NCBI GenBank assembly: GCA_003345545.1
Contig: PRDH01000026.1
Location: forward strand, 32,001 to 96,000
Length of the DNA: 64,000 nt
Source: Candidatus Thorarchaeota archaeon
GTDB lineage: Archaea; Asgardarchaeota; Thorarchaeia; Thorarchaeales; Thorarchaeaceae
Direction: 5' to 3'
Under the pieces are notes generated by a model, which made no database searches, was not told the origin of the DNA, and was given only the letters and a program-made list of their open reading frames with translations. The position numbers and the translations under genes were made by a program. Below are positions 28,881 through 52,498 of the stretch, piece after piece; position 1 is the stretch's first letter, and each line of letters starts with the position of its first letter.

Positions 28881-31800
28881 TTGAAACGCAACATCATACT
28901 GGTATTTCCTCTGATGTGCATCGTGCTAATCCTCATTCCATCGATATATGATCTCCCCCAGAATGCTCGCATGCTAGAAGGTCTAGATTACAGGCAAAAC
29001 GGGAACCTTCCCGTTGAGAATTATGCCGTGGTAGATAGGCAAACAGGCGTCTTTGATCCCGTTGTAGTTGAGCATATAGGGTCATCTGCCTGGGCGTCGA
29101 CATACACATCTGCGCGTACTGATGTATCACCTTCCCCAGGTTCTGCTGTGTTCATGCCTGCAGGTCCCACAGGCAATCAATACTCCTCGGATTGCGTTGC
29201 GGGTCACTTCCTAGTCGGGTCTGGAGGAAGTACTGATTTTGGATCATCTGAAGGGACACTCTCTCTTTGGTTGAAATGGGACCTCACAGCCCCCAATGGC
29301 CGCTTTTGGGGCCAACACGCCAACTTCGAAACAAGATGGACTACCAACAGACTGACTCTTGACTGGGGGAGTGATAACACACTCTTCGGGACGAAATCCA
29401 ACTGGTCAATAGATCATTGGTATTTCATCGCAATAACCTGGGATCAGACAATCAACTCTCTAGTAGCCTATTGGGGTGATGAGGAAACAGAGCCCATAGA
29501 GGATGCTTCGCTATCATGGACCGGTTCTGTTTCGGATCTACTTACTCAGAACAACATAATGAGTTCGCGAGGATCGGCAAGCTATCGTGTTGATGGACAT
29601 GTCGACGAGTTCAGATACTATTCAGTTGAAAGAAGTCTGGATGAATTGAGAATTGACTACAGGACAACTCTCACAGGCTCTGAACTTGGTCTCGTACACT
29701 ATTACCAGTTTGAAAACGACCTAGCGGATTCCGCCAGTGACACTGCTCTTGTTCAGGCAGGCAGTCACGTTTTCAGCCAAGATGTAGCCTCAGGGATTGG
29801 AGGATGGAGAGCAGAGCAAATCGAAATCGGCATTCGTGATTTGGAGCTGCTCAGTGTTCTGAACGGCTCCCTTGAGAGCGGAGTTCCAGGTACTGTGGTA
29901 GATTGGTCTGGTGACGCTAGTTGTTATCCATATGGTTGGCGAGCGCGCAGAGAGATTCTTGATACCCATGGCTACCAGCGAGTTTCATACAGCAATTCCG
30001 ACCCGAAATACTTGGTTCTTGAGAACGAGGGCTATGAAGATTCTGCTGCACCCAGCACACACCGCCACTATAATGGCACCAAGATCTACTGGTACCAAAT
30101 CGTGAATAATAGCAAGCACAATACTCAGTTTCAGTTCAGTATGAACTACCTCTATCAGAGAGGTCCAATCGGAGAGAATCATAGTGGCAATTTCAAGTTC
30201 AGTTTTCAGATCATGAATGGTTCATCTACTCTATGGAACTGGTCTGTAGACCCTACCAACATAACACAGCGCGGGATTTGGAATGAGATCGATTCCGTGG
30301 TAGTGAATTTGCCGGAGGTGCTTTCTACTTTTGAGGTAAGAGTTTGTTTTGCAGTCGACACGAACTCGAGCTATGTCGAGATCTCAGACTCAGATCCTGA
30401 TTTGGATGGCGACCCAGCAAATGGGAGGTATATCACGTTTCTAGTGGACGACATATCTCTCACAGTACTAGAAAATCTCAGTCCACAAAATGTTAATCTG
30501 CATGTCAATGTTGAACTAGTCGGCGACAATCCGATACTCGGCGACTCGGAATCTGGAACGATTTCGTTGAATCATACTTACTGGGAAAAAGCTGCAATCC
30601 CTTTCACATTCACATCAAATGCGAGTGTGTCATTTGAATACTCAGTTTGTGTTAGTCGGATGACGAAGTTCTACAACTCATCATTCTCGACGAACCTTAG
30701 TGACTTGGGCGTCGCATATGAGATTGACCTCAACCAAGATGCAGACCTATTCATCTTCACTTATATTCAATCCTACTCGGAGGCAAGAGACCTAGGCCTT
30801 ATCGTACACTATCGCGATGATTGGCGCAGCCCAACTGTGGAAGACCCCTTTGGCAACGACCTCACTGCTCAGGCATTAGTCGAATCTGATCGCTTGGAGA
30901 TTCCATCTGGTCTGGCCAGCGTCGTTGGTTGGTGGAAAATCAATCTGAAAGCACCAAACTATCTAGCGTCGATGTCGACTCAGGTACTTAGAAGCTCTGA
31001 ATCGACTTGGAAGACTGAAGCAGTTTTTCGTAGTGGCGATCAAATTCGCTGCAATGCCCTCATTGGTACTGAGTCTGAATTGACTTCTCCCATATTCGAT
31101 GTCAAGGCTGACTGGTATCTGCCAACAGGAGCTCTGTGGTCCAGCGAGACTATCGCCGAATCAAATAGCTCCTCTATTGTGAGTAATGGAACCACATTGG
31201 GACCTTACAATGCGACAATTGGAGAATGGATGGTTTCCGTATCTTGGTTCAATGGAACGGAGGTGGCATTTGGCTCGATCACATTTGAGGTACATCATAG
31301 ACTGACAATATTCGCTCAGACTCCGAGCATCGATGTTGCGCCTGGAGAACAATTCACAGCAACCATCTCGCTCTATGATCAAGACAATGGCAATCCTATT
31401 CTCGGTGATGCTCGCGTAGTTGGAAATTGGTCTTCCCTTGATATTCAATTCAATCCTAATCTTGCAAGAAGTTGGTGGGAGGCCGATTTCAACTCTTCAG
31501 TAGTGGGAACAGGTAGTTTTGTTCTCCTAGTTTCTGTCAGCATGCCCTATTATGTTGCGAACAACTGCACAATCAACGTGAACATCCCCGTTGCCGAGTC
31601 GCTATTCATGATTACCGTTAGAGCCACTCTTGTTGGAGCTCTAGCCGTGTTCGCTCTGTTCCTTGTTACTGCAATCAGTCGCCGTATCTATGTGCAAACA
31701 ATGACACGCAGGAACCTGGAACTCCTGGCCCTAAGAGGACGTTTCGAGGATGCAAGAAATCTAATCGGTATTCTAGTCATCCACCGCTCGATTGGTCTTC

Positions 31801-32381
31801 CCATTTACTCCCGAATCCTCAAGGGCGGCTTTCAAGAGTCCCTTCTAAGTTCGTTCATAACTGCGCTGTCACAATTCAGAGCGGAGTTCTCGTGGGATGA
31901 ACCAAGATGGACAGCGATACCCATTACAGAAGTAATTACCGCTGTTCAGACCGAGGTCCTCATCTGTGCCATGATAAGCGTCGAACCTGCTACGCCAAGG
32001 CAGAAGAATCAGTTGGAGCTTTTTGGCAGAGATATCGGAGAGCGCTATGATTTAGAGAATGGAGCTGTGCGGCAGCTAGTGAATAGTCCCGACCTAGACG
32101 ATACCATCGATCCTATCTTTGATAGTCACTTTGATGGAGCTCTCATGAATCGGTATGTCGGAGTCAGGGACGACCTTCCTGAGCATCTGAGTTTCGTGAA
32201 GGAAACCATGGCATCAATGGACCTCACAGATGGTGCTACGCCTGAATTCATTGTCAAATCGATGACACTATTGGGCCATAGTGATAGAAAGTCACACAGC
32301 ACAGTCCTGAATGCACTCGATGGAGGTTACCTGATCGCCGCTGAGAAGGTATTTCCTTCGAAGACAGAGCCAGAGCACTAG
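28881..32381 (+). CDS. Large single-pass surface protein with LamG-like domain and cytoplasmic longin/roadblock-like domain
   Basis: Signal peptide; LamG signatures GTLSLWLK, WYFIAITWD, GHVDEFRYYS, LVHYYQFE; TM near 31610-31680; tail ILVIHRSIGLPIYSR...ESLLSSFITALSQF. Confidence 0.8.
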   Translation: MKRNIILVFPLMCIVLILIPSIYDLPQNARMLEGLDYRQNGNLPVENYAVVDRQTGVFDPVVVEHIGSSAWASTYTSARTDVSPSPGSAVFMPAGPTGNQYSSDCVAGHFLVGSGGSTDFGSSEGTLSLWLKWDLTAPNGRFWGQHANFETRWTTNRLTLDWGSDNTLFGTKSNWSIDHWYFIAITWDQTINSLVAYWGDEETEPIEDASLSWTGSVSDLLTQNNIMSSRGSASYRVDGHVDEFRYYSVERSLDELRIDYRTTLTGSELGLVHYYQFENDLADSASDTALVQAGSHVFSQDVASGIGGWRAEQIEIGIRDLELLSVLNGSLESGVPGTVVDWSGDASCYPYGWRARREILDTHGYQRVSYSNSDPKYLVLENEGYEDSAAPSTHRHYNGTKIYWYQIVNNSKHNTQFQFSMNYLYQRGPIGENHSGNFKFSFQIMNGSSTLWNWSVDPTNITQRGIWNEIDSVVVNLPEVLSTFEVRVCFAVDTNSSYVEISDSDPDLDGDPANGRYITFLVDDISLTVLENLSPQNVNLHVNVELVGDNPILGDSESGTISLNHTYWEKAAIPFTFTSNASVSFEYSVCVSRMTKFYNSSFSTNLSDLGVAYEIDLNQDADLFIFTYIQSYSEARDLGLIVHYRDDWRSPTVEDPFGNDLTAQALVESDRLEIPSGLASVVGWWKINLKAPNYLASMSTQVLRSSESTWKTEAVFRSGDQIRCNALIGTESELTSPIFDVKADWYLPTGALWSSETIAESNSSSIVSNGTTLGPYNATIGEWMVSVSWFNGTEVAFGSITFEVHHRLTIFAQTPSIDVAPGEQFTATISLYDQDNGNPILGDARVVGNWSSLDIQFNPNLARSWWEADFNSSVVGTGSFVLLVSVSMPYYVANNCTINVNIPVAESLFMITVRATLVGALAVFALFLVTAISRRIYVQTMTRRNLELLALRGRFEDARNLIGILVIHRSIGLPIYSRILKGGFQESLLSSFITALSQFRAEFSWDEPRWTAIPITEVITAVQTEVLICAMISVEPATPRQKNQLELFGRDIGERYDLENGAVRQLVNSPDLDDTIDPIFDSHFDGALMNRYVGVRDDLPEHLSFVKETMASMDLTDGATPEFIVKSMTLLGHSDRKSHSTVLNALDGGYLIAAEKVFPSKTEPEH

Positions 32382-32455
32382 TACCATCCCAATTCTGTCT
32401 TCATGGGCTTCATTTATCAGGAGTGATGATGCATTCTTTCTAGGTCGTCCTTCAG

Positions 32456-33577
32456 ATGGAAGAGATAACGATTAGATATTGGAGCCCGCACGGACGCCAA
32501 GAGGAAACGAAGTTCCACAGAGAGCACTCGAAGATTGATTTGATCATGCGGGCAGCAAAACGGATTGACCTCTCTGATGTCAGAATGTGCACCAGTCTTC
32601 AGACTCTAGATCTATCGCATAACATGCTGGAGGAGCTTGACCTCACACCTCTGACTGGTTGCTCATTGCTCAAACAGCTCCGCATTCGGAGCAATCATCT
32701 CACAAGACTAGATCTATGGCCTCTTCTTGATTGCATGAGTCTGAGCGAAATCGACATCTCGGAAAATCGTCTTCAGAATCTGGACCTCTCTCCAGTCTTT
32801 CTGCGGTCTTCTGTCCGTGCGGACTCTTCTGTTGTCCTGTCAGCTGACGCTCTCCTCCACTATGTCTTCACTCAGGATGAACTAAACAGACGTTTTCAAC
32901 TGGTCAGAGGCGATGGTGCTCCTTGGACAGCACACCCAGTAATTATCTGGATGGAATACGCAGACCTCGCACACAGGATAGAGTGGAATAGTATCAAGAA
33001 ACGCATCGATTCACTACTGTGCATGATGACAGAAGATAACTGGTTTGGCGTTCAGCGTGGATTGCTTAGTGGGTTAGGGATGGAGGAGCTTGCTGGATTT
33101 GACGGCAATCCTAAGCAACTGCTGAAAGGTACAGATGGTAACATGTCTTTCAAGGACGCTCGTCGTGTTGTTTTTGACAATGCTATTGAACTACTTGAAG
33201 AACAACTGGAGAACGGAGGACCCACACTCTTCCTTGATACAGACAGGATGCGAGAAACAAGGGCATCGAAACTGATACCCGGAATTGCCGAGAGAAGAAA
33301 GCAAGAAGTCGAGGAAGTCATCTTGCCTGTGAAGGGCAGCAAGGTGAACTTGGAGACTCTATGGATGACTCATTACGGATTTGAGATTCTCAAGGCTCTT
33401 AGATTAGACTTGACAACAAATCTAGAAGGTCTTCATATAGTAAGAACAAGCTTTGAGGAACTTGGCATGGAGATACAGACACAGAAGGCTTCGACTGTAT
33501 CTCCTGCATACCCCGTCACGGTATCGAGAAGCATGTATCTTCATTCATTGAACTACATCCAAGGCAAATACGATTAG
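32456..33577 (+). CDS. Leucine-rich repeat protein
   Basis: About 3.5 LRRs: LQTLDLSHNMLEELDL, LKQLRIRSNHLTRLDL, LSEIDISENRLQNLDL. Confidence 0.85.
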   Translation: MEEITIRYWSPHGRQEETKFHREHSKIDLIMRAAKRIDLSDVRMCTSLQTLDLSHNMLEELDLTPLTGCSLLKQLRIRSNHLTRLDLWPLLDCMSLSEIDISENRLQNLDLSPVFLRSSVRADSSVVLSADALLHYVFTQDELNRRFQLVRGDGAPWTAHPVIIWMEYADLAHRIEWNSIKKRIDSLLCMMTEDNWFGVQRGLLSGLGMEELAGFDGNPKQLLKGTDGNMSFKDARRVVFDNAIELLEEQLENGGPTLFLDTDRMRETRASKLIPGIAERRKQEVEEVILPVKGSKVNLETLWMTHYGFEILKALRLDLTTNLEGLHIVRTSFEELGMEIQTQKASTVSPAYPVTVSRSMYLHSLNYIQGKYD

Positions 33578-33660
33578 GGCGTAGTTGGATGATTACCTGC
33601 TTCAATAGGTTAAATTACATGTTGGAATTCAGCGCAACGCCGAAGGATGTGTTCGTCTGA

Positions 33661-36044: not shown

Positions 36045-39000
36045 ATGAGAACTAAGAGAACTGTGGGACTAATTCTAGTAATTCTTCCTCTGATTCTGGG
36101 TATTATGATCTTGCCTCCTGGTTGGGCAATCGACTCAAAGCGTGGGTTAGATAGCGAGACTGTCGTCTTAGACAATGGCCAAAAGATTGTGGTAGCGCCC
36201 GATGAGGTGCTCATGAAGTACATCATCTCGGATTTGCCGACCTCAATGGCTGGAACAGGTGACCCATTGATTGCTTCAGAGTATGGAACGAGAATCGACT
36301 CGTTCATAGAACAGCGCATGGTCTATTATCCATCAGGAAGTATCACGACTGCTAACCTCTCGGTGCCCCTAGGCGAGCAGTGGGAAGGATATGGTGTCTA
36401 TGGAGACATCAGTAGTATAACAGAAAACCGTAGTTGGCTGGTCAATCAGGGCTTCAGCACAGATGCAACTTGGTCCTTCGAAACTCGATACGAGGAAGGG
36501 GATTTCAGTGGCAATAACAGAATGCATTACTTCACTCAAACAGGCACTAACGTAGGCACGTGGGGAACCAGAGGTACGGGAACGAGCCAATTCATTGATC
36601 CTTGGGGCGTCGCAATTGACTCCTCTGGCAACATCTACGTAGCTGATGCCTTCAACAACCGCATACAAGTCTTTACGAACACTGGCAGTTTCATTAGACA
36701 GTGGGGAAGCTATGGCATTGGAAATGGGCAATTCGACCGCCCCACAGGAGTTGCTGTCAACACCACAGGCTATGTATATGTTGTTGACCAAGGCAATGAT
36801 AGGGTGCAGGTGTTCAGTTCTACAGGTGTCTATCAGCGGCAATTCGGTACCTCGGGGATTGACAACGGTGAGTTCAGAAGTCCAACTGGTATAGCAATAC
36901 GCAACTCACTCGGATATGTATATGTGACAGACACAGGCAATGACCGTGTGCAGTACTTCAATTGGAATGGTGTACGACAAGGTGGTTGGGGCTCCACAGG
37001 GACAGGTAACAGCCAATTTCAGATGCCAACAGGAATCGCCGTCGACCAGGGCACTGGGCAGGTAGCTATCGCTGACAGTACCAACAATCGCGTTCAGAGG
37101 TTTACAGCTGCTGGAACATACTCTGGCCAGTTTGGCAGTCTTGGTGGCGGAAACACGAACTTTAGGACACCTATGGGAGTTGCCATCAACTCCACGACAG
37201 GTCGTATTTATGTGAATGACCTCGGCAATCACAGGATTTCTTACTTCTCCAACGCAGGTGCATATCAGGGACAATGGGGAACTGACGGAACAGGCACATC
37301 GAACCTACGCTTCAACTACGGTATCGCTGTAAGCCCGACGGGTAATGTGTACGTGAGTGAAGGCAGTGGTACTGAGAGGATGGATGCAAACTGGCTTTCA
37401 AACGGCCACGGAACGGGTAATCCATCTTCCATCTTTCAGATTGATGGCTACTGGCATGATGACCAGACTACGGATCTCTACGGATTCTGGTACAATCCTG
37501 GTGACAAAGCTTTTGCAAGACAGGACCTCGTAATCGAACGGGGCGAAGTGACGTGGGCTGGCATCTCCCTCGATTACTATGCAGACTGTCGCGGTTGGGG
37601 AACCTATATGACCGGGTTCTTTGAGCTCTTTGTATCGGTAGGCGATCCGGACCATGGTGGAAGCTACCTTTGGTCCAAGCAGTTTGACGATATTAATGAT
37701 GATAATATCTGGTACTCAACCGGACTTATCCCAATTGACTATTCTGACCTATCTCTGCCGAATGTAGAGATACTCGCAGGACTGAGAGTGACTGATAGCG
37801 AGTGGTATCGAGCAAGCGATATCCGACCTGAAGGCAGACTAGACAATATGGTCCTGTATATCAAAGCTAAGGCAACTCCTGATAACATTAATCTCCAGAT
37901 GAATGGAGTGGATGTCGATAATGTCTATAGTGGACCCACGCCAGTCTTTGGTCTCGGGACTGCTAGCTACGCGCCCTCGTTTCCATGGACATACGGCAAC
38001 GCCTATGCTAATTTCTCCTGGACCCCTGATGATAATCCCCCTGACCCGAATCTTGAGATATCCGTCTATATCGACGTTGATGTCAAGGTCTATGCACGTA
38101 GGTACAATGCAGTAACAGTCAATGACACTGAGCTTTTCAGCTATGGTGACAACTATGTCGTGCAGAACAGCACTACTGTCGAATGGACAACTAATCACTA
38201 CGTCGCGGTACCAGGAGGATACGAAGACGAGTTCTTCTACAATGTTTCCATACCACTGAATCGTGATATCACGTTCGTATCAGAACCCACGCAGCGATAT
38301 AGCAATCTTACGAATAGTTGGTATCTGGGCGACCCCGGTGATGGAGCTGTTAATATCTCAGTTTATGAGCTCGGACTCTCTGAACCTAACGGATTCTGGA
38401 TGATTCGCGGCGTTTCACCCAATATGGTGACGAATCTGCACGTGTGGGACAATGTGCTTGGTCAATGGGTTCAGACGAAGACCTTTAGGGCGGATGAGAA
38501 CACGAGATTCCGTGCTGTTCTGCCATCTGCGTACCAAGGTGACCTTGTCACTTTCACAATATATGACTCCCATGGAGAAGTCTGGGATACACTCACAGCT
38601 ACAGTGGACGTATCTGGCTACGCAATCAGCAATTATGTGAATCTTGATGCTGTCAGTGCACGAGTCGGTTCCTGGGAGGTACAAGCTTTTGTAGACGATC
38701 ATGATTCGGGCATCGAGGTGCACAATATTGGTTTCTTCCGTCGAGGTTTCTCTATTGACCATTCTACTCAATTATCAGTGAAGTACCCTGTCGAGGGCAG
38801 ACTGACCTGGGCTGTGAATGTGACCTATGGGGCTCTTGTCTTTCTCCAAATCCGTGTGAATGACAGCGATAATGGTGACCTGCTGGCCGCGGGCGTGATG
38901 TTATATTCTGGAGGATTTGGCAGTGGGACGGTCAGCGACCTTGGCACTGGTGAGTACAGTGTGACCCTGAATACCAACCTGCTGCCTTCAAATGGTGTCT

Positions 39001-42000: not shown

Positions 42001-44744
42001 TTGTCCTACCTGAGGGAGTTACATACTATCTTGGCGATATGGTCTACGCCAACATTAGCTACACTGCTATTGCCTTTGGTACTGGAGTGGCCGGAGCTGC
42101 TATCACGACTGACTGGTTCACACGGTATGGGACCGGCAGTAGCATTGTGGAAATAGCACCTGGCATATACCAGATGTCAATCAATACATCTGGACTCAAT
42201 GCTCAGCTATATCGATTCATTGTAAATGCAAGCAAATACCTCCATTTGAGTCAGAGTATTGAGGCGGACATTCTTCTTGCAGCTGTGCCTGTCTTGTTGG
42301 AACTTGTCTTCACTCCTCAGAATCCCATGTGGGGTGATAGTGTGGCGTTCCAGGCAAATGTAACAGATGCAAGGACAGGTGCCCCGGTTGTCGGAGCATA
42401 TGTCAACCTGACCATTGGTCTGTTAGTATTTGATATGACGCCAGTTGCCGATGGTCTGTATAACTGCACAGTTCTCACTTCTTCATTGACCTCAGGTGAG
42501 TACACAATCGAGGTACAGTCGTCTCTACTTAACTACGAGACCGCGCAGCGAGATTTCCAGATCCGCATTGAAAAAATCGCCGCAAAGATTTTTGCGTCCA
42601 TCGATCCAATCTCTGCTGTTAATGGCCAGACGGTCATTGTCCATGTCGATTACCTCGAGTACGCAACCGGTCTTCCAATCTCCGTGGATGGAGTGGTTGA
42701 ATTCTCATGGATCGGTGGCAGCGGCTTCATTGGCTGGTCAGCTGGCGATGACAAATATGTTGGTTCCTTTATCGTGACTGGAGCTGCCGTTGGTAACCAC
42801 CATATTCTCATCCAGGCCTCCTCCCCTAACTACAAGAGCGTCAGTACTGTGGTAACAATTGAAATCACAGAGATAAACACGCAACTCGTCCCGATATCAA
42901 ACACAGTTATCTCCGGCAACTACAGAGATATTGTCAATATCACCGTGTATCTGAACAATACTGATCTCAATCTACCAGTTGATGGCGCTACTCTCAGTTT
43001 TGGAGTGGGCTCTATCGTTGGCAATCTCATAGAGTTGACAGCTCCAGGCTACTACAGTGCTTTAGTGGATACATCGTTCCTGAGTGTGCAAGAATGGACC
43101 GTGTCTATATCTAGTGTCAAACCTGGATTCACTCCATCTCAATTCGACTTCACGCTGACAGTTGAACAGATCGAGACTACGATTGTGATTCTCACTAGTG
43201 GTACAGTTTCAGGCTACTACGGTGAGATCGTGACATTCAACTTCTTGTTCAATGATACTCATGCTAACGAAGGAATATCCGGCGCAATCACGAACTACAC
43301 TTTAGAACAGACACATGGATCGCTTGTGGACAATGGAGATGGAACCTACAGTCTGACTCTGAACACTTCTATTGCATCCGCTGGAGCGATACCGCACGAC
43401 ATATCTTTGACTTTCAGGAAAGAGAACTACCGCTTCGCCTATGGACTCGCCAAGCTTCTCGTGATGCCCGTCCCCACACAAATCGAAGGTCCTCTTGAAG
43501 CTGAGTATCCAATATATGACAACTATTCAATGCTTTTCAGTTTCAGGGACACACTTAATGATGCTTGGGTCACTGATGCAGTTGCAACAGCAGTATGGGA
43601 ATTCGGCACTGCGACTCTGACGAATCTCGGAAATGGTTCGTACATGTTTGGTCCTCATGAAGCGAATCTGTCGACACCTCTTCAGTACAGAGAACTCTCC
43701 TACAGGATCAGGATATCACTCTCAAGAGCAAACTATACCAGGATGGAGATTGAGCATTATTTGACCATTCGTAGAATCCTGACAGAGACGGTCTCTGCTG
43801 CGCCAACCTCAGCTATCTATGTTGGAGATGTGTTCCTTGTCAATGTCACTTTTTGGGACGCCGACCATGGCATAATGATCACTGATGCTATCATCAATGT
43901 TATCACTAGCAGCCAGGTTGATAACGGACTCATCCATGAAATTAATTTGGACATCAACTGGGGTAATGGGACCTATACGATTGCTCTCCGTGCACCTAAC
44001 TTGGCGTTCTATAGCCTCCGCATTGATTTCAGTAAGGCGGACTATCAGACTTCGTCAGTGGAGCTCGATATCTACGCTAGGCTAAGTCCCGAACAGGAAG
44101 CACTTGCGAGGGGCTTCGAGTACTCAGCAATTGGAATACTTGCGCTCGCGGCTCTCGCAACCCTGTACATCAAGGTGCTGTCGGTTCCAAAGCTGCTTCG
44201 GACTCTTAGACGGATGGTGGCAGTTCTTGGTAGAGGCCGCATACCAAAACCCGCCAATGTTCCAGTACGACGTAACATGCTGCTGGCGATGATGAAAGAG
44301 GAGCTTGCAGGTGTGGCGGTCGTGAAGACCATTGAGGATATTTCAGTTTCGACAGTTGATGTAGCTGCTATGGATGTCGAGGCTCTGCTTGAGGACCTTG
44401 CAACAGTTGTTGGTCTGACAGCGAGCGATGTTGACACTCTTAGGAGAGATCTTGACCAGATGAGGCCGAGTGAACGTGCTGGCTTCATCAATGAAGTCTT
44501 GAAGCAAGAACGTGCTAGACGGGCAAAGGAGCTTGCCGAAACCGAGGGTGTCACACCCGAGAAACGCCCAAGCACCGAAGTTGAGGAGAAGCTCTCTGAT
44601 GAGGAGCTCAAACACCTCAAGGAGCGATTGATGAAGATGGGAATTGCGGAAACTGAAGCAGATCTTATGGTCGAACAGGCGCGTAATTTGTCTAGGGCCG
44701 AGATAGATGCACTACTTCGTGAAATAGGAGGCTCAGAAGAATGA
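36045..44744 (+). CDS. Giant (2899 aa) type I membrane surface protein: head with NHL beta-propeller insert, Ig-like stalk, TM, helical cytoplasmic tail
   Basis: Signal peptide; six NHL repeats (F..P.GVA....G.IYV.D..N.RVQ.F) at about 36500-37360; repeated ~100-120 aa beta modules; TM near 44130-44180. Confidence 0.9.
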   Translation: MRTKRTVGLILVILPLILGIMILPPGWAIDSKRGLDSETVVLDNGQKIVVAPDEVLMKYIISDLPTSMAGTGDPLIASEYGTRIDSFIEQRMVYYPSGSITTANLSVPLGEQWEGYGVYGDISSITENRSWLVNQGFSTDATWSFETRYEEGDFSGNNRMHYFTQTGTNVGTWGTRGTGTSQFIDPWGVAIDSSGNIYVADAFNNRIQVFTNTGSFIRQWGSYGIGNGQFDRPTGVAVNTTGYVYVVDQGNDRVQVFSSTGVYQRQFGTSGIDNGEFRSPTGIAIRNSLGYVYVTDTGNDRVQYFNWNGVRQGGWGSTGTGNSQFQMPTGIAVDQGTGQVAIADSTNNRVQRFTAAGTYSGQFGSLGGGNTNFRTPMGVAINSTTGRIYVNDLGNHRISYFSNAGAYQGQWGTDGTGTSNLRFNYGIAVSPTGNVYVSEGSGTERMDANWLSNGHGTGNPSSIFQIDGYWHDDQTTDLYGFWYNPGDKAFARQDLVIERGEVTWAGISLDYYADCRGWGTYMTGFFELFVSVGDPDHGGSYLWSKQFDDINDDNIWYSTGLIPIDYSDLSLPNVEILAGLRVTDSEWYRASDIRPEGRLDNMVLYIKAKATPDNINLQMNGVDVDNVYSGPTPVFGLGTASYAPSFPWTYGNAYANFSWTPDDNPPDPNLEISVYIDVDVKVYARRYNAVTVNDTELFSYGDNYVVQNSTTVEWTTNHYVAVPGGYEDEFFYNVSIPLNRDITFVSEPTQRYSNLTNSWYLGDPGDGAVNISVYELGLSEPNGFWMIRGVSPNMVTNLHVWDNVLGQWVQTKTFRADENTRFRAVLPSAYQGDLVTFTIYDSHGEVWDTLTATVDVSGYAISNYVNLDAVSARVGSWEVQAFVDDHDSGIEVHNIGFFRRGFSIDHSTQLSVKYPVEGRLTWAVNVTYGALVFLQIRVNDSDNGDLLAAGVMLYSGGFGSGTVSDLGTGEYSVTLNTNLLPSNGVYEVDLSWTKANYDSLFDTFTVYVVYETELLSSDAPGIDVASGNTAELHVYFQDMFTNPVVGAAVVCNWTQGYTVTPDGSGNYLLRLDTTGVTLNLYRVSITASKNYYQSRSIILSVEVRELHTSAIPSTSFLSLPVGYTTSFTITYRDTDLQVPITGAANTISCNWSAIHSAGDQNYTVTGTATPGVYQVLIYSMDDDALDSYDLLFRVERYGAQNHTFFVTVELRTHLTSLYLDNSVEPTPYTGNITVNLVYYDVDANTGIVNGTTLGGYVELIITSSTLPYPTFWIAGISPDGLYAIHIPANQWPDVGQITLSFEVNWIGVNLKYSNLTLSTSALITAAPTDLFIGESPVITPYGEEISFSIIYFDIGADTGVVNATGPYSGNVHLFIEVLTIGETLTQYDMTILEIDYTARPGEYRITFDSSLLSGLGAVELKIWLNWTYAELPYYQNQVIVVTVYSAHRLTTVDWTPLPLTPYDELVNLTFTFTDSLSGAPISNSPQLSIAVPAYPSFNIYYLGDITGVFIVEIDTSLLSIGSQTFYLDVIWTGSPYYQNRTGVQIFISVRERYTDLTHGTYSPIQIGNTLHLNFTYRDLDDYTSLGMNGATLLLDSWLAGSYTVDDLGNGMYTLHLDTTAFSTIGTKIVNVTILYGGSRNCADAYDIFYLTLTIRRTQLTSDLPDLAPYLTEAVIVIHYTDDTTDTGIVGATATAACAAAIQTLQLNVNYWVDDNLDGSYSVRILTTALGNFGPYTITITVTWDLGWPFYQERVRDVDIEVSRRPATVTVSKSPLNTPFLSNVTFEIVVTDQLDSTGITLSKSNLILTHGIGGTLISNDQYSMAGSNGIYVISINSLVLSSDLEEDYPIFILFVWGDLTPYYANASSSTEVSIVARFTQVAVLQTPPGYYYFNVSALLRFSDYLTGAPIAGATVSVACTNTSSFDYWVVDNSDGTYTILVDSNSLAGLGRYFFQANFTWSGSPFYRDVIGVKFSISVNPVSTTLNFVLPEGVTYYLGDMVYANISYTAIAFGTGVAGAAITTDWFTRYGTGSSIVEIAPGIYQMSINTSGLNAQLYRFIVNASKYLHLSQSIEADILLAAVPVLLELVFTPQNPMWGDSVAFQANVTDARTGAPVVGAYVNLTIGLLVFDMTPVADGLYNCTVLTSSLTSGEYTIEVQSSLLNYETAQRDFQIRIEKIAAKIFASIDPISAVNGQTVIVHVDYLEYATGLPISVDGVVEFSWIGGSGFIGWSAGDDKYVGSFIVTGAAVGNHHILIQASSPNYKSVSTVVTIEITEINTQLVPISNTVISGNYRDIVNITVYLNNTDLNLPVDGATLSFGVGSIVGNLIELTAPGYYSALVDTSFLSVQEWTVSISSVKPGFTPSQFDFTLTVEQIETTIVILTSGTVSGYYGEIVTFNFLFNDTHANEGISGAITNYTLEQTHGSLVDNGDGTYSLTLNTSIASAGAIPHDISLTFRKENYRFAYGLAKLLVMPVPTQIEGPLEAEYPIYDNYSMLFSFRDTLNDAWVTDAVATAVWEFGTATLTNLGNGSYMFGPHEANLSTPLQYRELSYRIRISLSRANYTRMEIEHYLTIRRILTETVSAAPTSAIYVGDVFLVNVTFWDADHGIMITDAIINVITSSQVDNGLIHEINLDINWGNGTYTIALRAPNLAFYSLRIDFSKADYQTSSVELDIYARLSPEQEALARGFEYSAIGILALAALATLYIKVLSVPKLLRTLRRMVAVLGRGRIPKPANVPVRRNMLLAMMKEELAGVAVVKTIEDISVSTVDVAAMDVEALLEDLATVVGLTASDVDTLRRDLDQMRPSERAGFINEVLKQERARRAKELAETEGVTPEKRPSTEVEEKLSDEELKHLKERLMKMGIAETEADLMVEQARNLSRAEIDALLREIGGSEE

Positions 44745-47700
44745 AGAACACCAGGCGATTGGTTCCAATTATCCTCCTCGTAGCACTGATGATAGCGCCT
44801 CTCTTCCTTACTCCGCAGGCATCAATTGCTGTAGCTACTCCCAACCTTGATGCAGACACATCTAGCGATGTTCGTATAGTCGATATTGGGAATGGTGAAT
44901 TCATTGAGTTGGCACCCGATGAGGAGCTGCATAGGTTCGTTCTCTCAGACCAAGGCTGGACTGAATGGACCGGCTTCAGCGACCCTCTCAACGGCTCCGA
45001 ATTCGGAAATAGCACCAACATCTTCCTTGACAGACAAATGACGTATATTCCAGGTTCTGGCACAAGTTCTGTTCAAACCGGTATTTCCATGGGCGTTGGC
45101 TGGGAATCATACGAAACCAGAGTCCAGATTACTAGCCTGACTGAGAATAGAACATGGATAACGAATCCAGGATTCCAGGATAGTGAGAGTGGCTGGACAG
45201 TATCAAACACAGACCTTGGTTCTTCCAGCACGACTACATCTTCATGGCTTAATGATGGGCATGGAGTGAATGATGATTGCATACAGGTTGATATAAACTC
45301 TGTAGGCTCCGTTCCACCCTACTACTACGATGATGGTGATATTTCTGCATATGAGCAAGCGACAACAGTGACTCGTGGCGCGGTCGTTTGGTCAGCCCTT
45401 CGTCTAGATTATTGGGCAGATACAGTGGATGATACTCATTACGGGATGACTGGCTCATTCCGACTTTTCACGAATGTTGAGGGCACTGACATCTGGAGAA
45501 GAGTATTCACTGATATCGGAGCTGAAGAAACATGGTACAACACAGGTCTTGTTACTGTCATCCCCTCGATATTCGGGCTACCAGGCGATGCAACGGTAAC
45601 CACGCGAATCGGTCTGGAATCACTTGTTGCTGTGGGTTATGACCCGAATATTCATCCTCGGGCAAGGTTTGATAACGTCGAGCTCTTTCTCAAGACTCTG
45701 GTCAATCCAAGTGAGATTACCCTTCGAATGAATGGCCTGACAGTGAGCGATGGCGCATCACGAGGGATCTGCGCGATAACGCAAATTCCGGCTACTCCAT
45801 GGACAACATCGCCCGTGCTGCTCACATTCTCATGGACTCCGATTCCTTCACCACCAAATCCAAACAAAGTAGTCAGAATTGACTTCAACGTGAACGTGAA
45901 TATGTTCGCGCGACGCTATGATGTTTCCAGTCTTTATGAGATCGGTCCCACCTCATATGGTGAGAGATTCATCGTAAGAAATGGAACGAACGCCGAGTTC
46001 ACTTCTTATTTCAGAGCCGATATACCCACGGGGTATGCAAATCGCTATTTCTTCAACGAAACAATACCAATGGAACGTGATATCTATTCTGTTGCGCAAC
46101 CACTTGCTCCAGCAACAAATCTCACGAGCGGATGGACTGGAGGGAATCCAGGAGATGGTTTCTTCAACGTATCAACCTATGATATCACCAATGAGCCTGG
46201 AAGATTCGGTTACTGGAGAATCCTAAGCAGTTCTCCCAACATGATTTCTGACCTGGAATTATGGAATCCCGACATAAGTGGTTGGGCGCGGACGGTCGAC
46301 CTGAGAGCAGGAGATACGACGAGAGTACGCGCGGATGTCGGAGCTGAGTTCGCTGGATCGACTGTCACAATCACAATATACAAACCAGACGATTCTGTGT
46401 GGTTAACCTTGAGCCCGATAGTTGATGGAGCAGGTTATGCTACATCTACGACGTTCGCCCTCGATGGCTCTTCTGCTCCTGCTGGCAGCTGGATGGTTCA
46501 GGCGACTACAAACAACGTAGGAGCTGATGGCGAGTGGACTTCAGTCGGTCTATTCAAGAGACCTTTCACAATCACACATGCCTCTGATATCACCCTGACA
46601 TACCCAGCGGATGCTGTGGGAACGATGTTGACCAATGTGACTTTTGGAGATCTCTTGCTGATCATCCTGGAAGTCGAGGACACCGACAGCTATTCACCCA
46701 CAGTCCTTGTTCCAGGAGGCACGCTGACTCTTGACTGGGTCTTGGGTAGTGATACGTTCGATGACAATAGAAATGGTCAATACACCAAAGTCATCGATAC
46801 AGCACTTCTTCCTGGCAGTGGCAATTATGTGATGGGTCTGGACTGGACTCACCCCAACTTCGATGCTTCCAATACTGCGCTTACGATAAATGTGAACTAC
46901 GCTGCCACATTGACCTCTCCAGATTATCCAGGTATCTCTGGTCCTGTTGGTGATGACCAGTCATTCATAGCAATATTCGCGAATGTGAATGGAACCGGAA
47001 TCACAGAGGGAGAGCTATGGTGTGATTGGTCCAATCCTTACACAGTAGTCCCACTGGGAACTGGCCAGTTCGAATTTCAGCTGGACATGGAAGATATCCC
47101 CATTGGTGAATATCCGATTCATGTCTACGCAACGGGCCCCTTCATTGAGCCGCAAACAATGCTGATGTACGTGGGAGCAAGAGAGATCTATAGTTCTATC
47201 ACGTACACCTCTAGCCAGCTGTCGATACCGCTTGGTGAAGCATCTTCATTCCTTCTAACATGGACCGATACTGACCATGGAACACTGATCGCAGGTTCCG
47301 CCTCATCTATAACCTGCAACTGGACATCGTTCCATACATCAGGCGATACGAACTACACGGTCGTCGAGGTTTCGCCAGGAAAGTACAACATAAGTATCTT
47401 CACAAAATCCAGTGATCCTCTGACAGGATCGGATTTCTTTGACGTACGTTTCAATGTAATGAAGGATGACTATCAGAATCACACCTTTGATATCGCTGTT
47501 GAGATTCGGAAGAGGAACACTCTCTTTGTCTTGGATGCACCGATTGTACAGACTCCCTATGGAAGTCCAATAACTGTTCTTGTCTTCTACCAAGATACAG
47601 ACCTTCGAGTTGGCATTGGAAACGTCACAGGAGAAGTGAGACTAACCATCACTTCATCAGAATTGGGAGGCATAGTATATACAACTGCAGCATCCTCTCT

Positions 47701-50700
47701 GGGTCTTGGACATTACAACATCACCATCCCGAGCGACCAGTGGGGGAGCATTGGGTGGAAAGACCTGCACCTTCTTATTGAGTGGAGCGGAGTTGTTGAC
47801 AAGTTCTATAGTCAAACGATAGACACCAGCGCAAGAATAACTGGTACTGATACTGATTTGTATCTTGAACTCGCACCGACTGCTACCTACTACTTGAACA
47901 CCTTCAACTTCACGGTGATTTATTGGGACACCGTAGGCCTGCTGAGGATTAGCAATAGCACGAACAACGTGTTTCTACACATCATGGCACTTGGTGCGGG
48001 CAATTCAGTGACTCAGAGCGATTTCACAGTGACTGAATCTGCATCGGTCCCTGGTACGTACATTTTCGTTCTTGGCAGTTCGCTATTCTCGAGTACAGAT
48101 ACATTTCGATTTGAGTTGTCCTTCATGTGGAAGAAAGGACAGAGTCCTCTCTATGAGAATGGAACTATGGTCGTTTCGCTCATTCTGTTGGATAGGCCTA
48201 CATATGTTGACTATACACCTGTCGCTTCGACTCCCTATGGCGAACAAGCTGAATTTCTCTTCAGCTTTGTTGATACTCTGACTTCAGTGAAGATCGCAAA
48301 TTCATCTCAATTGTACATAGACTTGAATGATTTAGGTGTAATATTCACTTACTCGTATAATCCAGTTACTAAGGAGTTCACATTGTACATAGATACTGCA
48401 TCGATTGGCAGCATAGGACCTCATGATCTTCACCTGAATGTGACTTGGATTGGAGCACCATTCTATGCTTCTATTCAAAGCAAGATATTCTCTGTCAGCG
48501 TGATCACAAGAGCGACGCAGCTCTCTCACCTATCCTTTAGCCCTGGGCAGTGGGGCAACAACATCACAATTGTCTTCATCTATACAGACATAGTAGCAGG
48601 CTCTACTACTGGCATGACTGGTACATTGACACTGAATATCGCAGCGGACAAGTATAGTGTGGTTTACAGTCCAGAGGGACGATTCATTGTTACCTTGAAC
48701 ACGACGGCCTTTCTTGGAGATGGAGAGTATTCTGTAACGGCAGTTGTTGTCCATACGTTTGCGTATTATGCTAACGCAACCGAGATATTCGATATTTCGG
48801 TACTCAAACGGTCTACGCAACTTGGCTATGACAGCCCGGATCCTGCACCGTATGCATCGAATGCTACACTTTATGTAACCTATGTCGATGACAGTACGGG
48901 AAGAGGTATTCCAGGAGCTAGCATTGCTATCTCCGGAAACAGTACCTATGCACTCGTCCTGAATTCCAATTATTGGTTCACGTACATAGGAAATGGTCGC
49001 TATCTCATCGAAGTCGATACGGCCGCTCTTGGCGCGCCAGGCTATTACCTCCTCACTGTTTCAGTCACATTTACAGGAGAACCGTTCTATCTTCCTGGCT
49101 CGAGAGATGTATTGACAAGGGTCACTTTGAGAACAACTCAGATTCTGATAACCCAGACTCCCGGAAGCGTTTCCTTCCTTGAAAATGTGGTCTTCAGATT
49201 CAAGTTCACTGATTACTTGCTGGGCACCAAGATTGCGATTACTAAGAGCCACATCACTCTCACACACGGCGAATACCCCTACACAGAGATTGCATCCGGA
49301 AGTTACTTCCTCTATGAGTATGCAACGTACTACGAGATAGTATTCAACTCAACCATTGTCAGTCCCGACACTCTCGTCACTGGACACCCTATTCAAATGA
49401 CAATCGATCTGGGTTCTGGCGTCCCCTATTATGCGCCTAGAAGTACTTCAACAACTGTATCGACAGTTGAGCGACCAACGCAGATTCTGTTTCCACTTGT
49501 GGAAGACACTCCCTACTTTGATAATATCACCATAGAGCTCAGTTACGTCGATTACTTGACAGGAGCCGGCATTGACGGCGCGAACCTGCTGATAGCAAGT
49601 GGTAACTGGTCGTCGCCTCAATACACGTTGTTCCGCGAGGGCGATGGCACCTACAGAATCCTCATCAATAGTAGCGTATTTGGAAACACTGGAACTGTCT
49701 TCTTTGACATCACTCTCAGCAAGTCAGGTGCACCGTTCTACTCAACCAGGGCTACCCTCGGTGTTCCAGCAACCATTAGGGAGGTACAGACCTCTCTCGT
49801 CGCGGACGCTCCTCCTGCTGGTTCCACAGCTGTGGGAGCACCTATCGAGGTCCTGCTTACGCTAGTTGATTTTGACCATGACTTGCCCCTATCAAATGCA
49901 GTCATCACCAGTGACTGGACGGCACTCTTTGGCAGGAGCTATACAGTGGTAGAACTGGGGAATGGTGCCTACACAATCACCCTCACCACAACTGGACTGC
50001 TTGCACAGAGGTATGACTTTCACGTCTATGGTGACAAACCGTTCTATCAGACTGCAGTGGCAGGAGTATTTGTTCAACCCGGTGCAGCCACAGTCGAGAT
50101 ATTCTTGGAGAGGAGCACCTACTACGCAGATTGGGGCGAACTAGTCAATATCACATTTCAAGTTCGGGAACCCTATTACAGCACGCCTGTCACTGGCATG
50201 ACTGCATCTCTTCTTTGGCAAGGCATGCTCTATGGCTTCAGCGAGGTCGGCAATGGCTATTACACGCTGTTGCTTGATTCGTCAGATACTAACTTTGGCG
50301 TCTATGCTCCGCAGATATCTGTCACGAAGCAGTACTATCAACCAAGGCAGACAACATTCAATCTCATAGTGTCAAAAGCTACAGGACAGATCATTCCTGA
50401 CTTTTCGAGTTATCAGGTTGTGATTGACACTTCAATAGACATCCAGCTGTTTCTGAATGACACTGTTTCTGGAATGCCTGTGACCACGGCGACAGTGACA
50501 ATGGAGTTCAATAGTACAGTCTATCTGCTCACTCATCTCGGTGCAGGTGTCTATTCTGGTGACTTGCTTGTATCCGGTTTTGCGATTGGGCAATATCCAC
50601 TCACAATCAGAGCTATCTCTCTCAATCATATGTTCCTGGAAACCATCGTTGGCATCAACGTTGTCCCAATTTACACCGAAGTGAAGTTGGTGAGTGGCGC

Positions 50701-52498
50701 TACGGTTTTGACAGTCTATTTCGGTGACACGTTGAACATACTTGCGATCTATAACGACACGTACTATAATGCGCTAGTGAGTGGGGCTAGTGTGATCTAT
50801 ACCCTTGGAAGCCTCACCGGCACATTGACCGAGGAAACAAATCACACCTATAGTGCTGTGATTGACGTGAGCTCCCTGCCATCCCAATCAATCTACCTGC
50901 GGTTGACTGCTACGAAGTTCGGCTACTCGACCACAACGAAATCGATCATCGTGACAATCCTTCCGATTCCAACTTCTGCGACTGTTGATGAAGCCAGCAC
51001 GTTGGAGAGCGGATATTTCGGCGCTCCGCTCAGCTTCAAGTTCTATTACGATGACCTTCAGCACTATGTAGGCATCGGAGGAGCTAATGTGATTGCCAGC
51101 TGGGAAGGAGGTACACCAACTGTAACTGACTATTCTAACGGGACATACAGAGTTGACTTGGTCATCACTGTGACAATTCCAGGTATCTATGATTTAGTTG
51201 TAAGGTTCGACCTTCAGAACTACACAACAAGAACAGCGATAGCTAGGATTGAGGTCTATGCCACTCCCGCCGCAATCTACGGTCCAACCACCTACTCATC
51301 GCCGATCAATGATACCATCGTGATTCCTTATCATGTGAAGAATATGTTGGACAATAGCACCATATCGGATGTGATTGGATTCGCATCATCCTCTCAATTG
51401 GGTGAATACGAGCTTCTGTTACTGCCAAATGGCAACTATACCCTGAACCTCCCTGGCGACCTACAGTACGGAACTTACGGTTTTGATGTCTATTTCGCCA
51501 CAACGAAATACACTATGTCTCCCATTCATGTGGATGTTACGGTGCGGACGATCCTGACAGCAGCTCTGCATGGAAATCTGACTATTCGAACCCAGCCTGG
51601 AGTGTCTTTCTCCTTTACTGTGACATATATGGACTTGGACCATAATGTTCCGATCAGCGGAGGAAGTCTGTCCTTAGAACTAGACCCTCAAGCGATTACC
51701 TACTACAACCAATCTATGCTCGATGAAGATGGAACGTACACATTGTACTTCTTCGCGAAAGGCGGCGGAACCCACTCGATTGTCATCAATATTGTAAAGG
51801 AGGGTTATGTCGCTCAGCAAGTCAGACTGTCGATTCAGTCAGACATCTCTGCAGAGCAAGCCTTCCAGCAGTTGGTTACAACAGCCGTAGGATCCGGAGT
51901 TCTCATAGTAGCCCTGCTTCTAGTAGCCTATGTGAAAGTGTGGAGTATTCCAAAACAGATACGCATCATGAGCCGTATGATTCGAGCGCTGGCGAAAGGT
52001 CATGTGCCAAAGGCTGCTAAAGCCCCAACTAGACAAGACATAGCTATGACTATTGTCAATGAAGAGATAGCTTCAATGCACCTAGTGAAACCCAGAGAGG
52101 ACATAGCTCCGGAACCAATAGTAACAACGGTTCCAGAGGTTAATGAGCTATTAGAGGAACTCGCATCTATCACTGGACTGGGTGAGGCTGAGATTGATGC
52201 GTTCAAGGCTGACCTCTCTCGAATGAGGGCCAGCGAGAGACCCGGATTCCTCAAGGAAGTGATTGACCAGGAGAAGGCTCGTCGCGCTGACGTCTTGGCA
52301 AAGCCCGCGAAGGTGGTCGCCAAGAAAGAGCAAGTTCCTTTGCAGGACTTGCCTGGTGAGCTAGAGGACCTACGGAAGAAACTACTCAAGAAGGGCATGG
52401 CAAGTGATGAGATTGACATCATCCTAGAGGAGGCCAAGGGTCTCTCGAAGGCGGATCTTGAAGCACTGCTGGATAGCTTGGGTATTAGCTTGGACTAG
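44741..52498 (+). CDS. Giant (2585 aa) type I membrane surface protein, paralog of the upstream gene without NHL insert
   Basis: Colinear motifs with the upstream protein (ELAPDE, TENRTW, WLNDGHG, SPNM, ITCNW, SVPK/SIPK, MRxSER); ATGA overlap. Confidence 0.9.
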   Translation: MKNTRRLVPIILLVALMIAPLFLTPQASIAVATPNLDADTSSDVRIVDIGNGEFIELAPDEELHRFVLSDQGWTEWTGFSDPLNGSEFGNSTNIFLDRQMTYIPGSGTSSVQTGISMGVGWESYETRVQITSLTENRTWITNPGFQDSESGWTVSNTDLGSSSTTTSSWLNDGHGVNDDCIQVDINSVGSVPPYYYDDGDISAYEQATTVTRGAVVWSALRLDYWADTVDDTHYGMTGSFRLFTNVEGTDIWRRVFTDIGAEETWYNTGLVTVIPSIFGLPGDATVTTRIGLESLVAVGYDPNIHPRARFDNVELFLKTLVNPSEITLRMNGLTVSDGASRGICAITQIPATPWTTSPVLLTFSWTPIPSPPNPNKVVRIDFNVNVNMFARRYDVSSLYEIGPTSYGERFIVRNGTNAEFTSYFRADIPTGYANRYFFNETIPMERDIYSVAQPLAPATNLTSGWTGGNPGDGFFNVSTYDITNEPGRFGYWRILSSSPNMISDLELWNPDISGWARTVDLRAGDTTRVRADVGAEFAGSTVTITIYKPDDSVWLTLSPIVDGAGYATSTTFALDGSSAPAGSWMVQATTNNVGADGEWTSVGLFKRPFTITHASDITLTYPADAVGTMLTNVTFGDLLLIILEVEDTDSYSPTVLVPGGTLTLDWVLGSDTFDDNRNGQYTKVIDTALLPGSGNYVMGLDWTHPNFDASNTALTINVNYAATLTSPDYPGISGPVGDDQSFIAIFANVNGTGITEGELWCDWSNPYTVVPLGTGQFEFQLDMEDIPIGEYPIHVYATGPFIEPQTMLMYVGAREIYSSITYTSSQLSIPLGEASSFLLTWTDTDHGTLIAGSASSITCNWTSFHTSGDTNYTVVEVSPGKYNISIFTKSSDPLTGSDFFDVRFNVMKDDYQNHTFDIAVEIRKRNTLFVLDAPIVQTPYGSPITVLVFYQDTDLRVGIGNVTGEVRLTITSSELGGIVYTTAASSLGLGHYNITIPSDQWGSIGWKDLHLLIEWSGVVDKFYSQTIDTSARITGTDTDLYLELAPTATYYLNTFNFTVIYWDTVGLLRISNSTNNVFLHIMALGAGNSVTQSDFTVTESASVPGTYIFVLGSSLFSSTDTFRFELSFMWKKGQSPLYENGTMVVSLILLDRPTYVDYTPVASTPYGEQAEFLFSFVDTLTSVKIANSSQLYIDLNDLGVIFTYSYNPVTKEFTLYIDTASIGSIGPHDLHLNVTWIGAPFYASIQSKIFSVSVITRATQLSHLSFSPGQWGNNITIVFIYTDIVAGSTTGMTGTLTLNIAADKYSVVYSPEGRFIVTLNTTAFLGDGEYSVTAVVVHTFAYYANATEIFDISVLKRSTQLGYDSPDPAPYASNATLYVTYVDDSTGRGIPGASIAISGNSTYALVLNSNYWFTYIGNGRYLIEVDTAALGAPGYYLLTVSVTFTGEPFYLPGSRDVLTRVTLRTTQILITQTPGSVSFLENVVFRFKFTDYLLGTKIAITKSHITLTHGEYPYTEIASGSYFLYEYATYYEIVFNSTIVSPDTLVTGHPIQMTIDLGSGVPYYAPRSTSTTVSTVERPTQILFPLVEDTPYFDNITIELSYVDYLTGAGIDGANLLIASGNWSSPQYTLFREGDGTYRILINSSVFGNTGTVFFDITLSKSGAPFYSTRATLGVPATIREVQTSLVADAPPAGSTAVGAPIEVLLTLVDFDHDLPLSNAVITSDWTALFGRSYTVVELGNGAYTITLTTTGLLAQRYDFHVYGDKPFYQTAVAGVFVQPGAATVEIFLERSTYYADWGELVNITFQVREPYYSTPVTGMTASLLWQGMLYGFSEVGNGYYTLLLDSSDTNFGVYAPQISVTKQYYQPRQTTFNLIVSKATGQIIPDFSSYQVVIDTSIDIQLFLNDTVSGMPVTTATVTMEFNSTVYLLTHLGAGVYSGDLLVSGFAIGQYPLTIRAISLNHMFLETIVGINVVPIYTEVKLVSGATVLTVYFGDTLNILAIYNDTYYNALVSGASVIYTLGSLTGTLTEETNHTYSAVIDVSSLPSQSIYLRLTATKFGYSTTTKSIIVTILPIPTSATVDEASTLESGYFGAPLSFKFYYDDLQHYVGIGGANVIASWEGGTPTVTDYSNGTYRVDLVITVTIPGIYDLVVRFDLQNYTTRTAIARIEVYATPAAIYGPTTYSSPINDTIVIPYHVKNMLDNSTISDVIGFASSSQLGEYELLLLPNGNYTLNLPGDLQYGTYGFDVYFATTKYTMSPIHVDVTVRTILTAALHGNLTIRTQPGVSFSFTVTYMDLDHNVPISGGSLSLELDPQAITYYNQSMLDEDGTYTLYFFAKGGGTHSIVINIVKEGYVAQQVRLSIQSDISAEQAFQQLVTTAVGSGVLIVALLLVAYVKVWSIPKQIRIMSRMIRALAKGHVPKAAKAPTRQDIAMTIVNEEIASMHLVKPREDIAPEPIVTTVPEVNELLEELASITGLGEAEIDAFKADLSRMRASERPGFLKEVIDQEKARRADVLAKPAKVVAKKEQVPLQDLPGELEDLRKKLLKKGMASDEIDIILEEAKGLSKADLEALLDSLGISLD

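Follow-up and report, generated by a model that had tools for sequence, protein, structure and literature searches.

The window analyzed here, a stretch of 64,000 nucleotides from a Candidatus Thorarchaeota archaeon (GenBank assembly GCA_003345545.1, contig PRDH01000026.1, positions 32,001 to 96,000 of the forward strand), encodes three large surface proteins, denoted P0001, P0002 and P0003, whose extracellular heads are homologous by profile comparison and which differ in the domains inserted into the head, in the length of the stalk and in the cytoplasmic tail. Position numbers refer to the whole window, and all three open reading frames (ORFs) are on the plus strand (aa, amino acids; TM, transmembrane; Ig, immunoglobulin):

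28881..32381, + strand: P0001, 1166 aa, TTG start; signal, LamG-like insert, head core, one Ig-like module, TM helix, longin tail
36045..44744, + strand: P0002, a giant of 2899 aa; signal, head with NHL insert, 17 Ig-like modules, TM helix (aa 2694-2714), conserved tail
44741..52498, + strand: P0003, a giant of 2585 aa; signal, insert-less head, 17 Ig-like modules, TM helix (aa 2377-2405), conserved tail
31599..31682, + strand: TM helix of P0001, aa 907-934, with basic residues next (hydropathy scan)

The TTG start of P0001 is backed by orthologs of 1166 aa, the full-length orthologs ranging from 1153 to 1170 aa. Hydropathy analysis identifies in all three proteins an N-terminal hydrophobic signal and a single TM segment near the C-terminus followed by basic residues, the sequence signature of type I membrane proteins, with predicted cytoplasmic tails of 232 (P0001), 185 (P0002) and 180 (P0003) residues. 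The proteins contain 21, 48 and 41 N-glycosylation sequons, respectively, all but one of which fall outside the tails. The two giants are colinear paralogs judging by a BLASTP alignment with 32% identity across about 2466 aa; the stop codon of P0002 overlaps the start codon of P0003 (ATGA, 4 nt), with GGAGG upstream, and the same 4-nt overlap is found in a genome of a different genus (G372).

The earlier note on this DNA, made from the sequence alone, reported motifs shared in the same order by the three proteins, and all the motifs quoted there are present in the translations of the three ORFs. Pairwise comparison captures little of this relationship: BLASTP searches with P0001 yield E-values of 1e-6 and 1e-4 for the two giants over spans of less than 300 residues, and the alignment of P0001 632-908 with P0003 449-724 (21% identity, E 1e-6) covers the membrane-proximal part only. 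Profile comparison reaches much further. An hhalign comparison of 24 ectodomains of the P0001 family with 21 giant heads gives a Prob of 99.1 and E 9.1e-19 over 567 columns, which pair P0001 294-905 with P0003 107-725. The first quoted motif is absent from this local alignment because it is located N-terminal of the LamG-like domain of P0001. When LamG-less relatives of P0001 are compared with the giant heads, the Prob is about 100 and the E-value 3.2e-38, over 605 contiguous columns that begin at that first motif (GvLNP..EQ.G over G.S.PL.G.EYG); therefore, all seven sets of motifs are colinear in one homologous head. Detection is reciprocal, with the hidden Markov model (HMM) of the P0001 family matching the giants and the HMM of the giants matching the P0001 family. 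By these profile comparisons, the entire head is homologous in P0001, P0002 and P0003, with a likeness far above chance.

The head core matched no family in a Pfam search. An AlphaFold2 model of P0003 aa 1-730 (mean predicted local distance difference test score, pLDDT, of 77, and above 85 across most of 90-390 and 500-720) is all-beta; the region of the first motif, aa 59-87, is modeled with low confidence. One element of the model is a jelly roll of the type found in carbohydrate-binding modules (CBMs) and MAM domains; the remainder of the head consists of beta-sandwich domains, the last of which is an Ig-like domain at 614-721. The features of the heads are:

29769..31274, + strand: P0001 head core, aa 297-798, with homology to the heads of the giants (hhalign E 9.1e-19; head-core profile A3)
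45143..45697, + strand: CBM/MAM-like jelly roll of the P0003 head, aa 135-319 (model)
29130..29768, + strand: LamG/ConA-like insert of P0001, aa 84-296 (PF13385 in orthologs); without a counterpart in most members
36537..37379, + strand: NHL beta-propeller of P0002, aa 165-445 (PF01436, E 5.7e-34), inside a loop of the head jelly roll

The top fold matches of the predicted jelly roll are CBMs of glycoside hydrolases and lyases; a Pfam search places its sequence in no CBM family. A Foldseek search with the entire head returns generic multi-domain matches alone, with TM-scores of 0.1-0.2.

The LamG-like and NHL domains are insertions into two different loops of the head. The former is located between a conserved RTD motif and a GW motif of P0001, a site that on the P0003 model corresponds to the loop joining strands 89-103 and 111-115; in the LamG-less relatives, the core begins at aa ~90-120. 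The P0001 sequence itself has no PF13385 match in a Pfam search, but its insert aligns along the entire length with orthologs that match PF13385 (Laminin_G_3): 4 of the 24 aligned members do so (best E 1e-8), and a precomputed PF13385 annotation is present in some 17 homologs. Together with a weak profile match to the lectin-like jelly-roll part of NTNHA (E 0.0015), these ortholog matches suggest that the insert is LamG-like. In P0002, PF01436 covers five stretches of the propeller, and the 6-bladed family PF17170 also matches (E 4.5e-10); the propeller replaces about 20 residues in the jelly-roll loop between strands 134-138 and 163-170, so that the giant-head HMM (A2) matches P0002 at 2-178 and 436-1023, flanking the propeller. 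The propeller is missing in P0002 orthologs of 2599-2610 aa and in a 2586-aa ORF of G372 (the match lies inside a 2592-aa open frame); therefore, the NHL domain is a lineage-specific insertion. The assignment of inserts in the earlier note holds for P0002 (NHL) and P0003 (none), and the ortholog matches support a LamG-like domain in P0001. Both LamG and NHL are classical binding modules.

Each head ends in ~100 residues that match the repeats downstream in the giants. Counting with an iterated HMM built from the giants' repeats delineates the stalks:

31275..31589, + strand: single Ig-like stalk module of P0001, aa 799-903
38763..44078, + strand: 17 contiguous Ig-like modules of P0002, aa 907-2678
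46580..51844, + strand: 17 contiguous Ig-like modules of P0003, aa 614-2368

By this module HMM, the ~100-aa stalk modules are homologous across the three proteins, and the first one in P0003 is a beta sandwich in the model. The contrast between about one and roughly 15 or more modules that the earlier note described is one versus 17 by this count, and exactly 17 modules are present in all eight giant orthologs tested (8/8). The nearest longer relatives of P0001 retain this head and tail and have 5 or 8 modules added ahead of the TM helix, and LamG-less members have 9 to 14. Among Loki-type homologs of P0309, the total lengths fall into classes of ~1180, ~1390, ~1600-1625, ~1705-1720 and ~1810-1830 aa, with a spacing of about 210 residues, which suggests that two stalk modules are gained or lost together. 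Related genomes encode additional giant ORFs (open frames of 3000-6555 aa in G362:C1, G372:C2/C16/C19/C76, G320:C1 and G368:C1) that match the giants' head profile in the membrane-proximal part alone, at positions ~560-722; therefore, Ig-module giants other than this pair are common in the family.

The cytoplasmic tails are of two kinds:

31746..32150, + strand: cytoplasmic longin domain of P0001, aa 956-1090 (predicted structure)
32151..32348, + strand: small helical C-terminal subdomain of the P0001 tail, aa 1091-1156 (model secondary structure)
44187..44744, + strand: cytoplasmic tail of P0002, aa 2715-2899, giants' type (alignment A6)
51956..52498, + strand: cytoplasmic tail of P0003, aa 2406-2585, giants' type (hydropathy, alignment A6)

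The model of the P0001 tail, built with 34 homologs (pLDDT 81, predicted TM-score 0.74), consists of a juxtamembrane helix, a b-b-a-b-b-b-a-a unit and a small helical subdomain. The DSSP assignment (E27-34, E40-45, H51-69, E78-80, E85-89, E93-99, H105-122, H126-132) yields the five-stranded sheet in the longin order b1-b2-a1-b3-b4-b5-a2-a3. The model superposes on solved longin domains well above background, and a Foldseek search returns longin and roadblock proteins exclusively, with weak E-values. Profile searches of PDB sequences and Pfam detect nothing significant; in the Pfam longin families (e.g., PF13774 and PF19036), P0001 has no match above the gathering threshold, and one of the 34 tails matches Fuz_longin_1 with E 0.11. 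The longin-like reading of this tail in the earlier note is thus borne out by the model, the strand order, the superposition and Foldseek: the P0001 tail is a longin at the level of the predicted fold and falls outside the longin families by sequence. The C-terminal subdomain is possibly winged-helix-like; the winged helix-turn-helix family PF24409 matches the C-terminus of two divergent longin-type tails, in one case above the Pfam cut-off. The longin fold is a protein-docking fold, and what is known of it suggests that the P0001 tail may engage a small GTPase, a regulator of such GTPases or a coat-like protein. On another contig of the same genome (C70, L004:5738-6928), a soluble 397-aa protein without a Pfam match opens with a b-b-a segment of longin type, similar to the beginning of the P0001 tail (hhalign Prob 61, E 8e-5), and may be a stand-alone longin protein.

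The tails of the giants are strongly conserved in both paralogs, with the invariant motif M..SER.GF..EV..QE..R. Their description as helical is a reading of the amino acid sequence. A profile search of PDB sequences gives a best E of 0.0017, to unrelated helical proteins, a Pfam search gives nothing below E 0.008, and the ESM Atlas features provide no usable match. Among the complete family members, 139 tails cluster with that of P0001 and 66 with those of the giants, in addition to a few minor ones; the latter group includes proteins of just 861-1540 aa. A third class, consisting of tails without a BLAST connection to the longin class (P0269 and P0316 from one BLAST cluster, and P0273), was considered and dropped: a pooled profile of twelve divergent tails, none of them joined by BLAST to the P0001 family (nine Loki-type tails, which dominate it, with P0269, P0316 and P0273; P0278 and P0293 from the same BLAST cluster left out), matches the longin domain of P0001 with an hhalign E-value of 2e-11. 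Most of the divergent tails thus appear to be remote longin homologs, leaving two main tail types, of which the longin is the commoner. The exchange of tails postulated in the earlier note holds to the extent that one head occurs with two main tail classes; much of the further diversity resolves into distant longins. One Promethearchaeota protein (P0293, 2265 aa), a distant relative that has the head, contains, directly past the TM segment (residues ~2030-2090), a cysteine-rich stretch CPECG...CTKC...CWQCG that looks like a zinc ribbon or a RING-like element inserted into the tail.

A search of 1.84 billion representative proteins with a profile of the head core (A3; P0001 aa 290-812, about 520 residues lying between signal peptide and Ig stalk) retrieves 226 clusters at 50% identity with E <= 1e-3, 98 of them with E <= 1e-30, so that by profile match the family comprises at least 226 such clusters. 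The commonest layout includes a signal, a LamG-less core starting at aa ~90-120, a variable stalk, a TM helix and a longin tail that matches the one in P0001 with E 1e-40 to 1e-80; the total lengths are 1070-2342 aa. The head core is detected in 214 of 400 Asgard genomes, with strong matches in the window's own family (81/85 genomes) and weaker ones in several other families; within this genome set, families f8, f10, f11 and f13 yield no match. All named matches come from Asgard archaea (Thor, Loki/Prometh, Hermod, Heimdall/Hod, Odin and Sif), and among these the head family is so far Asgard-only. The cataloguing of the head across Asgard genomes advocated in the earlier note reveals a large family, and the notion of diversification by domain insertion is supported by insertions into head loops, with variation in the number of stalk modules as an additional source. 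The source genome encodes four members, namely P0001, P0002 and P0003 (the giants being detected by A3 with E 3e-11 and 9e-11) and a 1553-aa ORF on contig C21 (L003:8548-13209; the matches lie inside an open frame of 1560 aa) that has a longin tail, lacks LamG and is surrounded by unrelated genes (TspO-like, MscL, AlkZ-like glycosylase and PEMT-like methyltransferase). The most conserved regions of the three proteins are cytoplasmic: the mean identity to orthologs is 64.6% for the longin domain, 63.8% for the P0003 tail and 65.3% for the other giant tail, compared with 46-60% for heads and stalks, which argues for a conserved intracellular interaction.

Taken together, these observations appear best compatible, with moderate confidence, with the hypothesis that the three proteins are paralogous members of an Asgard-wide group of type I surface glycoproteins in which heads bind ligands, stalks set the reach and tails dock partners. 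In these proteins, the signal is followed by an all-beta head (an N-terminal strand, the CBM/MAM-like jelly roll and beta sandwiches), an Ig stalk, the TM helix and a conserved tail, with variation stemming from domains inserted into head loops, from 1 to 17 stalk modules and from two main types of tail. Ligands outside the cell, probably glycans or the surfaces of other cells, would be bound by the head and its inserts; the length of the stalk would determine the distance of the head from the membrane; and the tail may dock a cytoplasmic partner, so that binding at the head is coupled to the cell interior. Joint production and use of the two giants is probable, given the ATGA overlap of their genes, its recurrence in another genus and the 17 modules in every ortholog tested. 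The structural and evolutionary part of the earlier note's interpretation, a modular family of single-pass surface proteins, stands, founded on the homology, domain order, topology, jelly-roll and longin folds, distribution and conservation pattern; receptor or adhesin function in the manner of eukaryotic adhesion receptors is an analogy that no GTPase link in the gene neighborhoods supports.

Several points weigh against this hypothesis. The type of ligand, the cytoplasmic partners, any signaling and the pairing of the giants are inferred; the likeness of the jelly roll to CBMs stays at the level of the predicted fold, and that between the heads of P0001 and the giants comes from sequence profiles. 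The tail of the giants shows no recognizable fold or family in the PDB, Pfam and ESM Atlas searches. Neighborhood searches of the window and of the surroundings of the C21 paralog turn up neither a gene for a small GTPase nor any other evident partner. The gene order around the locus (the LamG-longin gene, a leucine-rich repeat (LRR) protein, a small membrane protein, a coenzyme A ligase on the opposite strand, giant 1 and giant 2) recurs in G362 and G372, which speaks for the hypothesis but may amount to no more than general synteny among members of a single archaeal family. Finally, the invariant length of 17 modules would be no less expected of a structural spacer than of a receptor.

The last point leads to the principal alternative, a structural coat, in which the giants, and perhaps smaller members, would form the main envelope of Thorarchaeia as a surface layer (S-layer)-like structure or canopy, its height fixed by the 17-module stalk, with the tails serving for anchoring or assembly. 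The constancy of 17 modules and ~2580 aa among giant orthologs that are just ~50% identical speaks for a coat, as do the abundance of sequons in the ectodomains and the conservation of the stalk modules to the same extent as the head; furthermore, Ig-repeat proteins form archaeal S-layers, and the fold matches include those of Nitrosopumilus (8c8o) and Sulfolobus SlaB (8qox). However, the tails, the most conserved regions, comprise 180-230 aa, more than anchoring requires, and the longin is a docking fold; the longin-tailed members differ widely from one another in stalk length and in number of copies, which is not what a single lattice protein would show; and the giant pair is undetected in two genomes of the window's own family (G328 and G320) that are 86-91% complete. 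On this balance, a coat is possible but doubtful. In addition, cultured Lokiarchaeia, although belonging to another class, display complex surface proteins and have no ordered S-layer (PMC9834061).

Alternatively, cell-anchored lectin- or CBM-like heads could hold polysaccharide or detritus to be degraded outside the cell, without coupling to the interior. In line with such a role, the jelly roll finds its best fold matches in CBMs of glycoside hydrolases and lyases, and LamG/ConA-like and NHL domains occur in glycan-binding and hydrolytic proteins too; yet the cluster contains no catalytic domain or hydrolase genes, a fold match by itself is no proof of sugar binding, and the strong conservation of the cytoplasmic domains would be left unexplained, which makes this scenario improbable. 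That the motifs reflect chance or low-complexity likeness of unrelated beta-rich surface proteins, as the weak pairwise BLAST scores of P0001 and the giants (E 1e-4 to 1e-6, less than 300 residues) might suggest, is refuted by the profile-profile E-values of 9e-19 and 3e-38 over 567-605 colinear columns, the reciprocal HMM detection and the retrieval of both families by the core profile among 1.8 billion proteins.

A stronger version of the favored hypothesis, ligand-binding glycoproteins with docking tails, holds that these are true outside-in receptors, in which the heads, on binding a ligand or clustering, would alter how the tails, of the longin and the giants' type alike, interact with small GTPases of Asgard archaea, with regulators of these GTPases or with the cytoskeleton. 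We consider this unlikely; if true, it would represent a prokaryotic forerunner of receptor-coupled control of membranes and cytoskeleton, on the longin platform of eukaryotic trafficking. Asgard archaea are the nearest known prokaryotic relatives of eukaryotes, and their longin, roadblock and small-GTPase genes are numerous and of still obscure cellular role. The fusion of an ectodomain, a TM helix and a longin is a concrete, testable spot where longin/GTPase parts could meet the cell surface; the potential for an outside-in link is real but unproven.

Compared with eukaryotic longins (Sec22b, VAMP7 and Ykt6; the N-termini of AP sigma/mu; zeta-COP; TRAPP Bet5/Trs20; SRalpha SRX), the longin of P0001 shows no Pfam or PDB sequence match, the similarity being confined to the fold. 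Moreover, it directly follows the TM segment of a type I protein with an ectodomain of ~900 aa, whereas longin SNAREs are tail-anchored and cytoplasmic, and the analysis identified for it neither a SNARE motif nor a GTPase or coat partner. Long arrays of Ig-like modules combined with a distal binding region are shared with Bap, PrgB, the ice-binding adhesin, Nitrosopumilus SLP and Sulfolobus SlaB, and Ig-repeat surface proteins appear among the Foldseek and VIA matches; the likeness is generic (whole-head TM-scores of 0.1-0.2), and the head core here belongs to no Pfam family. To our knowledge, these adhesins and S-layer proteins carry no conserved folded cytoplasmic domains. Eph receptors and RPTPmu, with a jelly-roll tip on an Ig/FN3 stalk, offer an analogy of layout only: the proteins described here have no kinase or phosphatase and no sequence relation to these receptors, and their fold matches to them are no better than those to bacterial CBMs. 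Published accounts of Asgard longins describe soluble NPRL2-like proteins and fusions of longins to GTPases or two-component domains (bioRxiv 10.1101/2020.10.19.343400; PMC10933270), and the passages on longins in these two sources mention no fusion to an extracellular head and stalk.

In the literature searched, we found no paper on the head family, the longin-tail fusion or the giant pair, in agreement with the view of the earlier note that this is a candidate for an undescribed system. Single-pass surface proteins with Ig stalks and Asgard longin proteins are known kinds; what is new is the occurrence of one head in three architectures with two insertion sites, the homology of the stalk modules, the paired giants with a fixed number of 17 modules, and how large the head family is and how far it extends taxonomically. 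A single core profile of ~520 residues finds hundreds of otherwise unannotated Asgard surface proteins, and the 17-module pair predicts a surface structure ~60-70 nm high, assuming ~4 nm per fully extended Ig module.

Two genes between P0001 and the giants are part of the conserved gene order:

32456-33577, + strand: cytoplasmic LRR protein, 373 aa, no signal peptide (Pfam LRR; 45% identity in G372)
33661-34257, + strand: small membrane protein, 198 aa, with a CPVC motif (37% identity in G372, same order)

They may act together with the surface proteins, or their position may reflect synteny alone. In G372, an additional gene located just upstream of the giant pair (L001:9106-11310), for which the window has no counterpart, encodes a 734-aa protein without a Pfam match. 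The window is also marked as archaeal by its ThrRS, which bears the archaea-specific editing domain.

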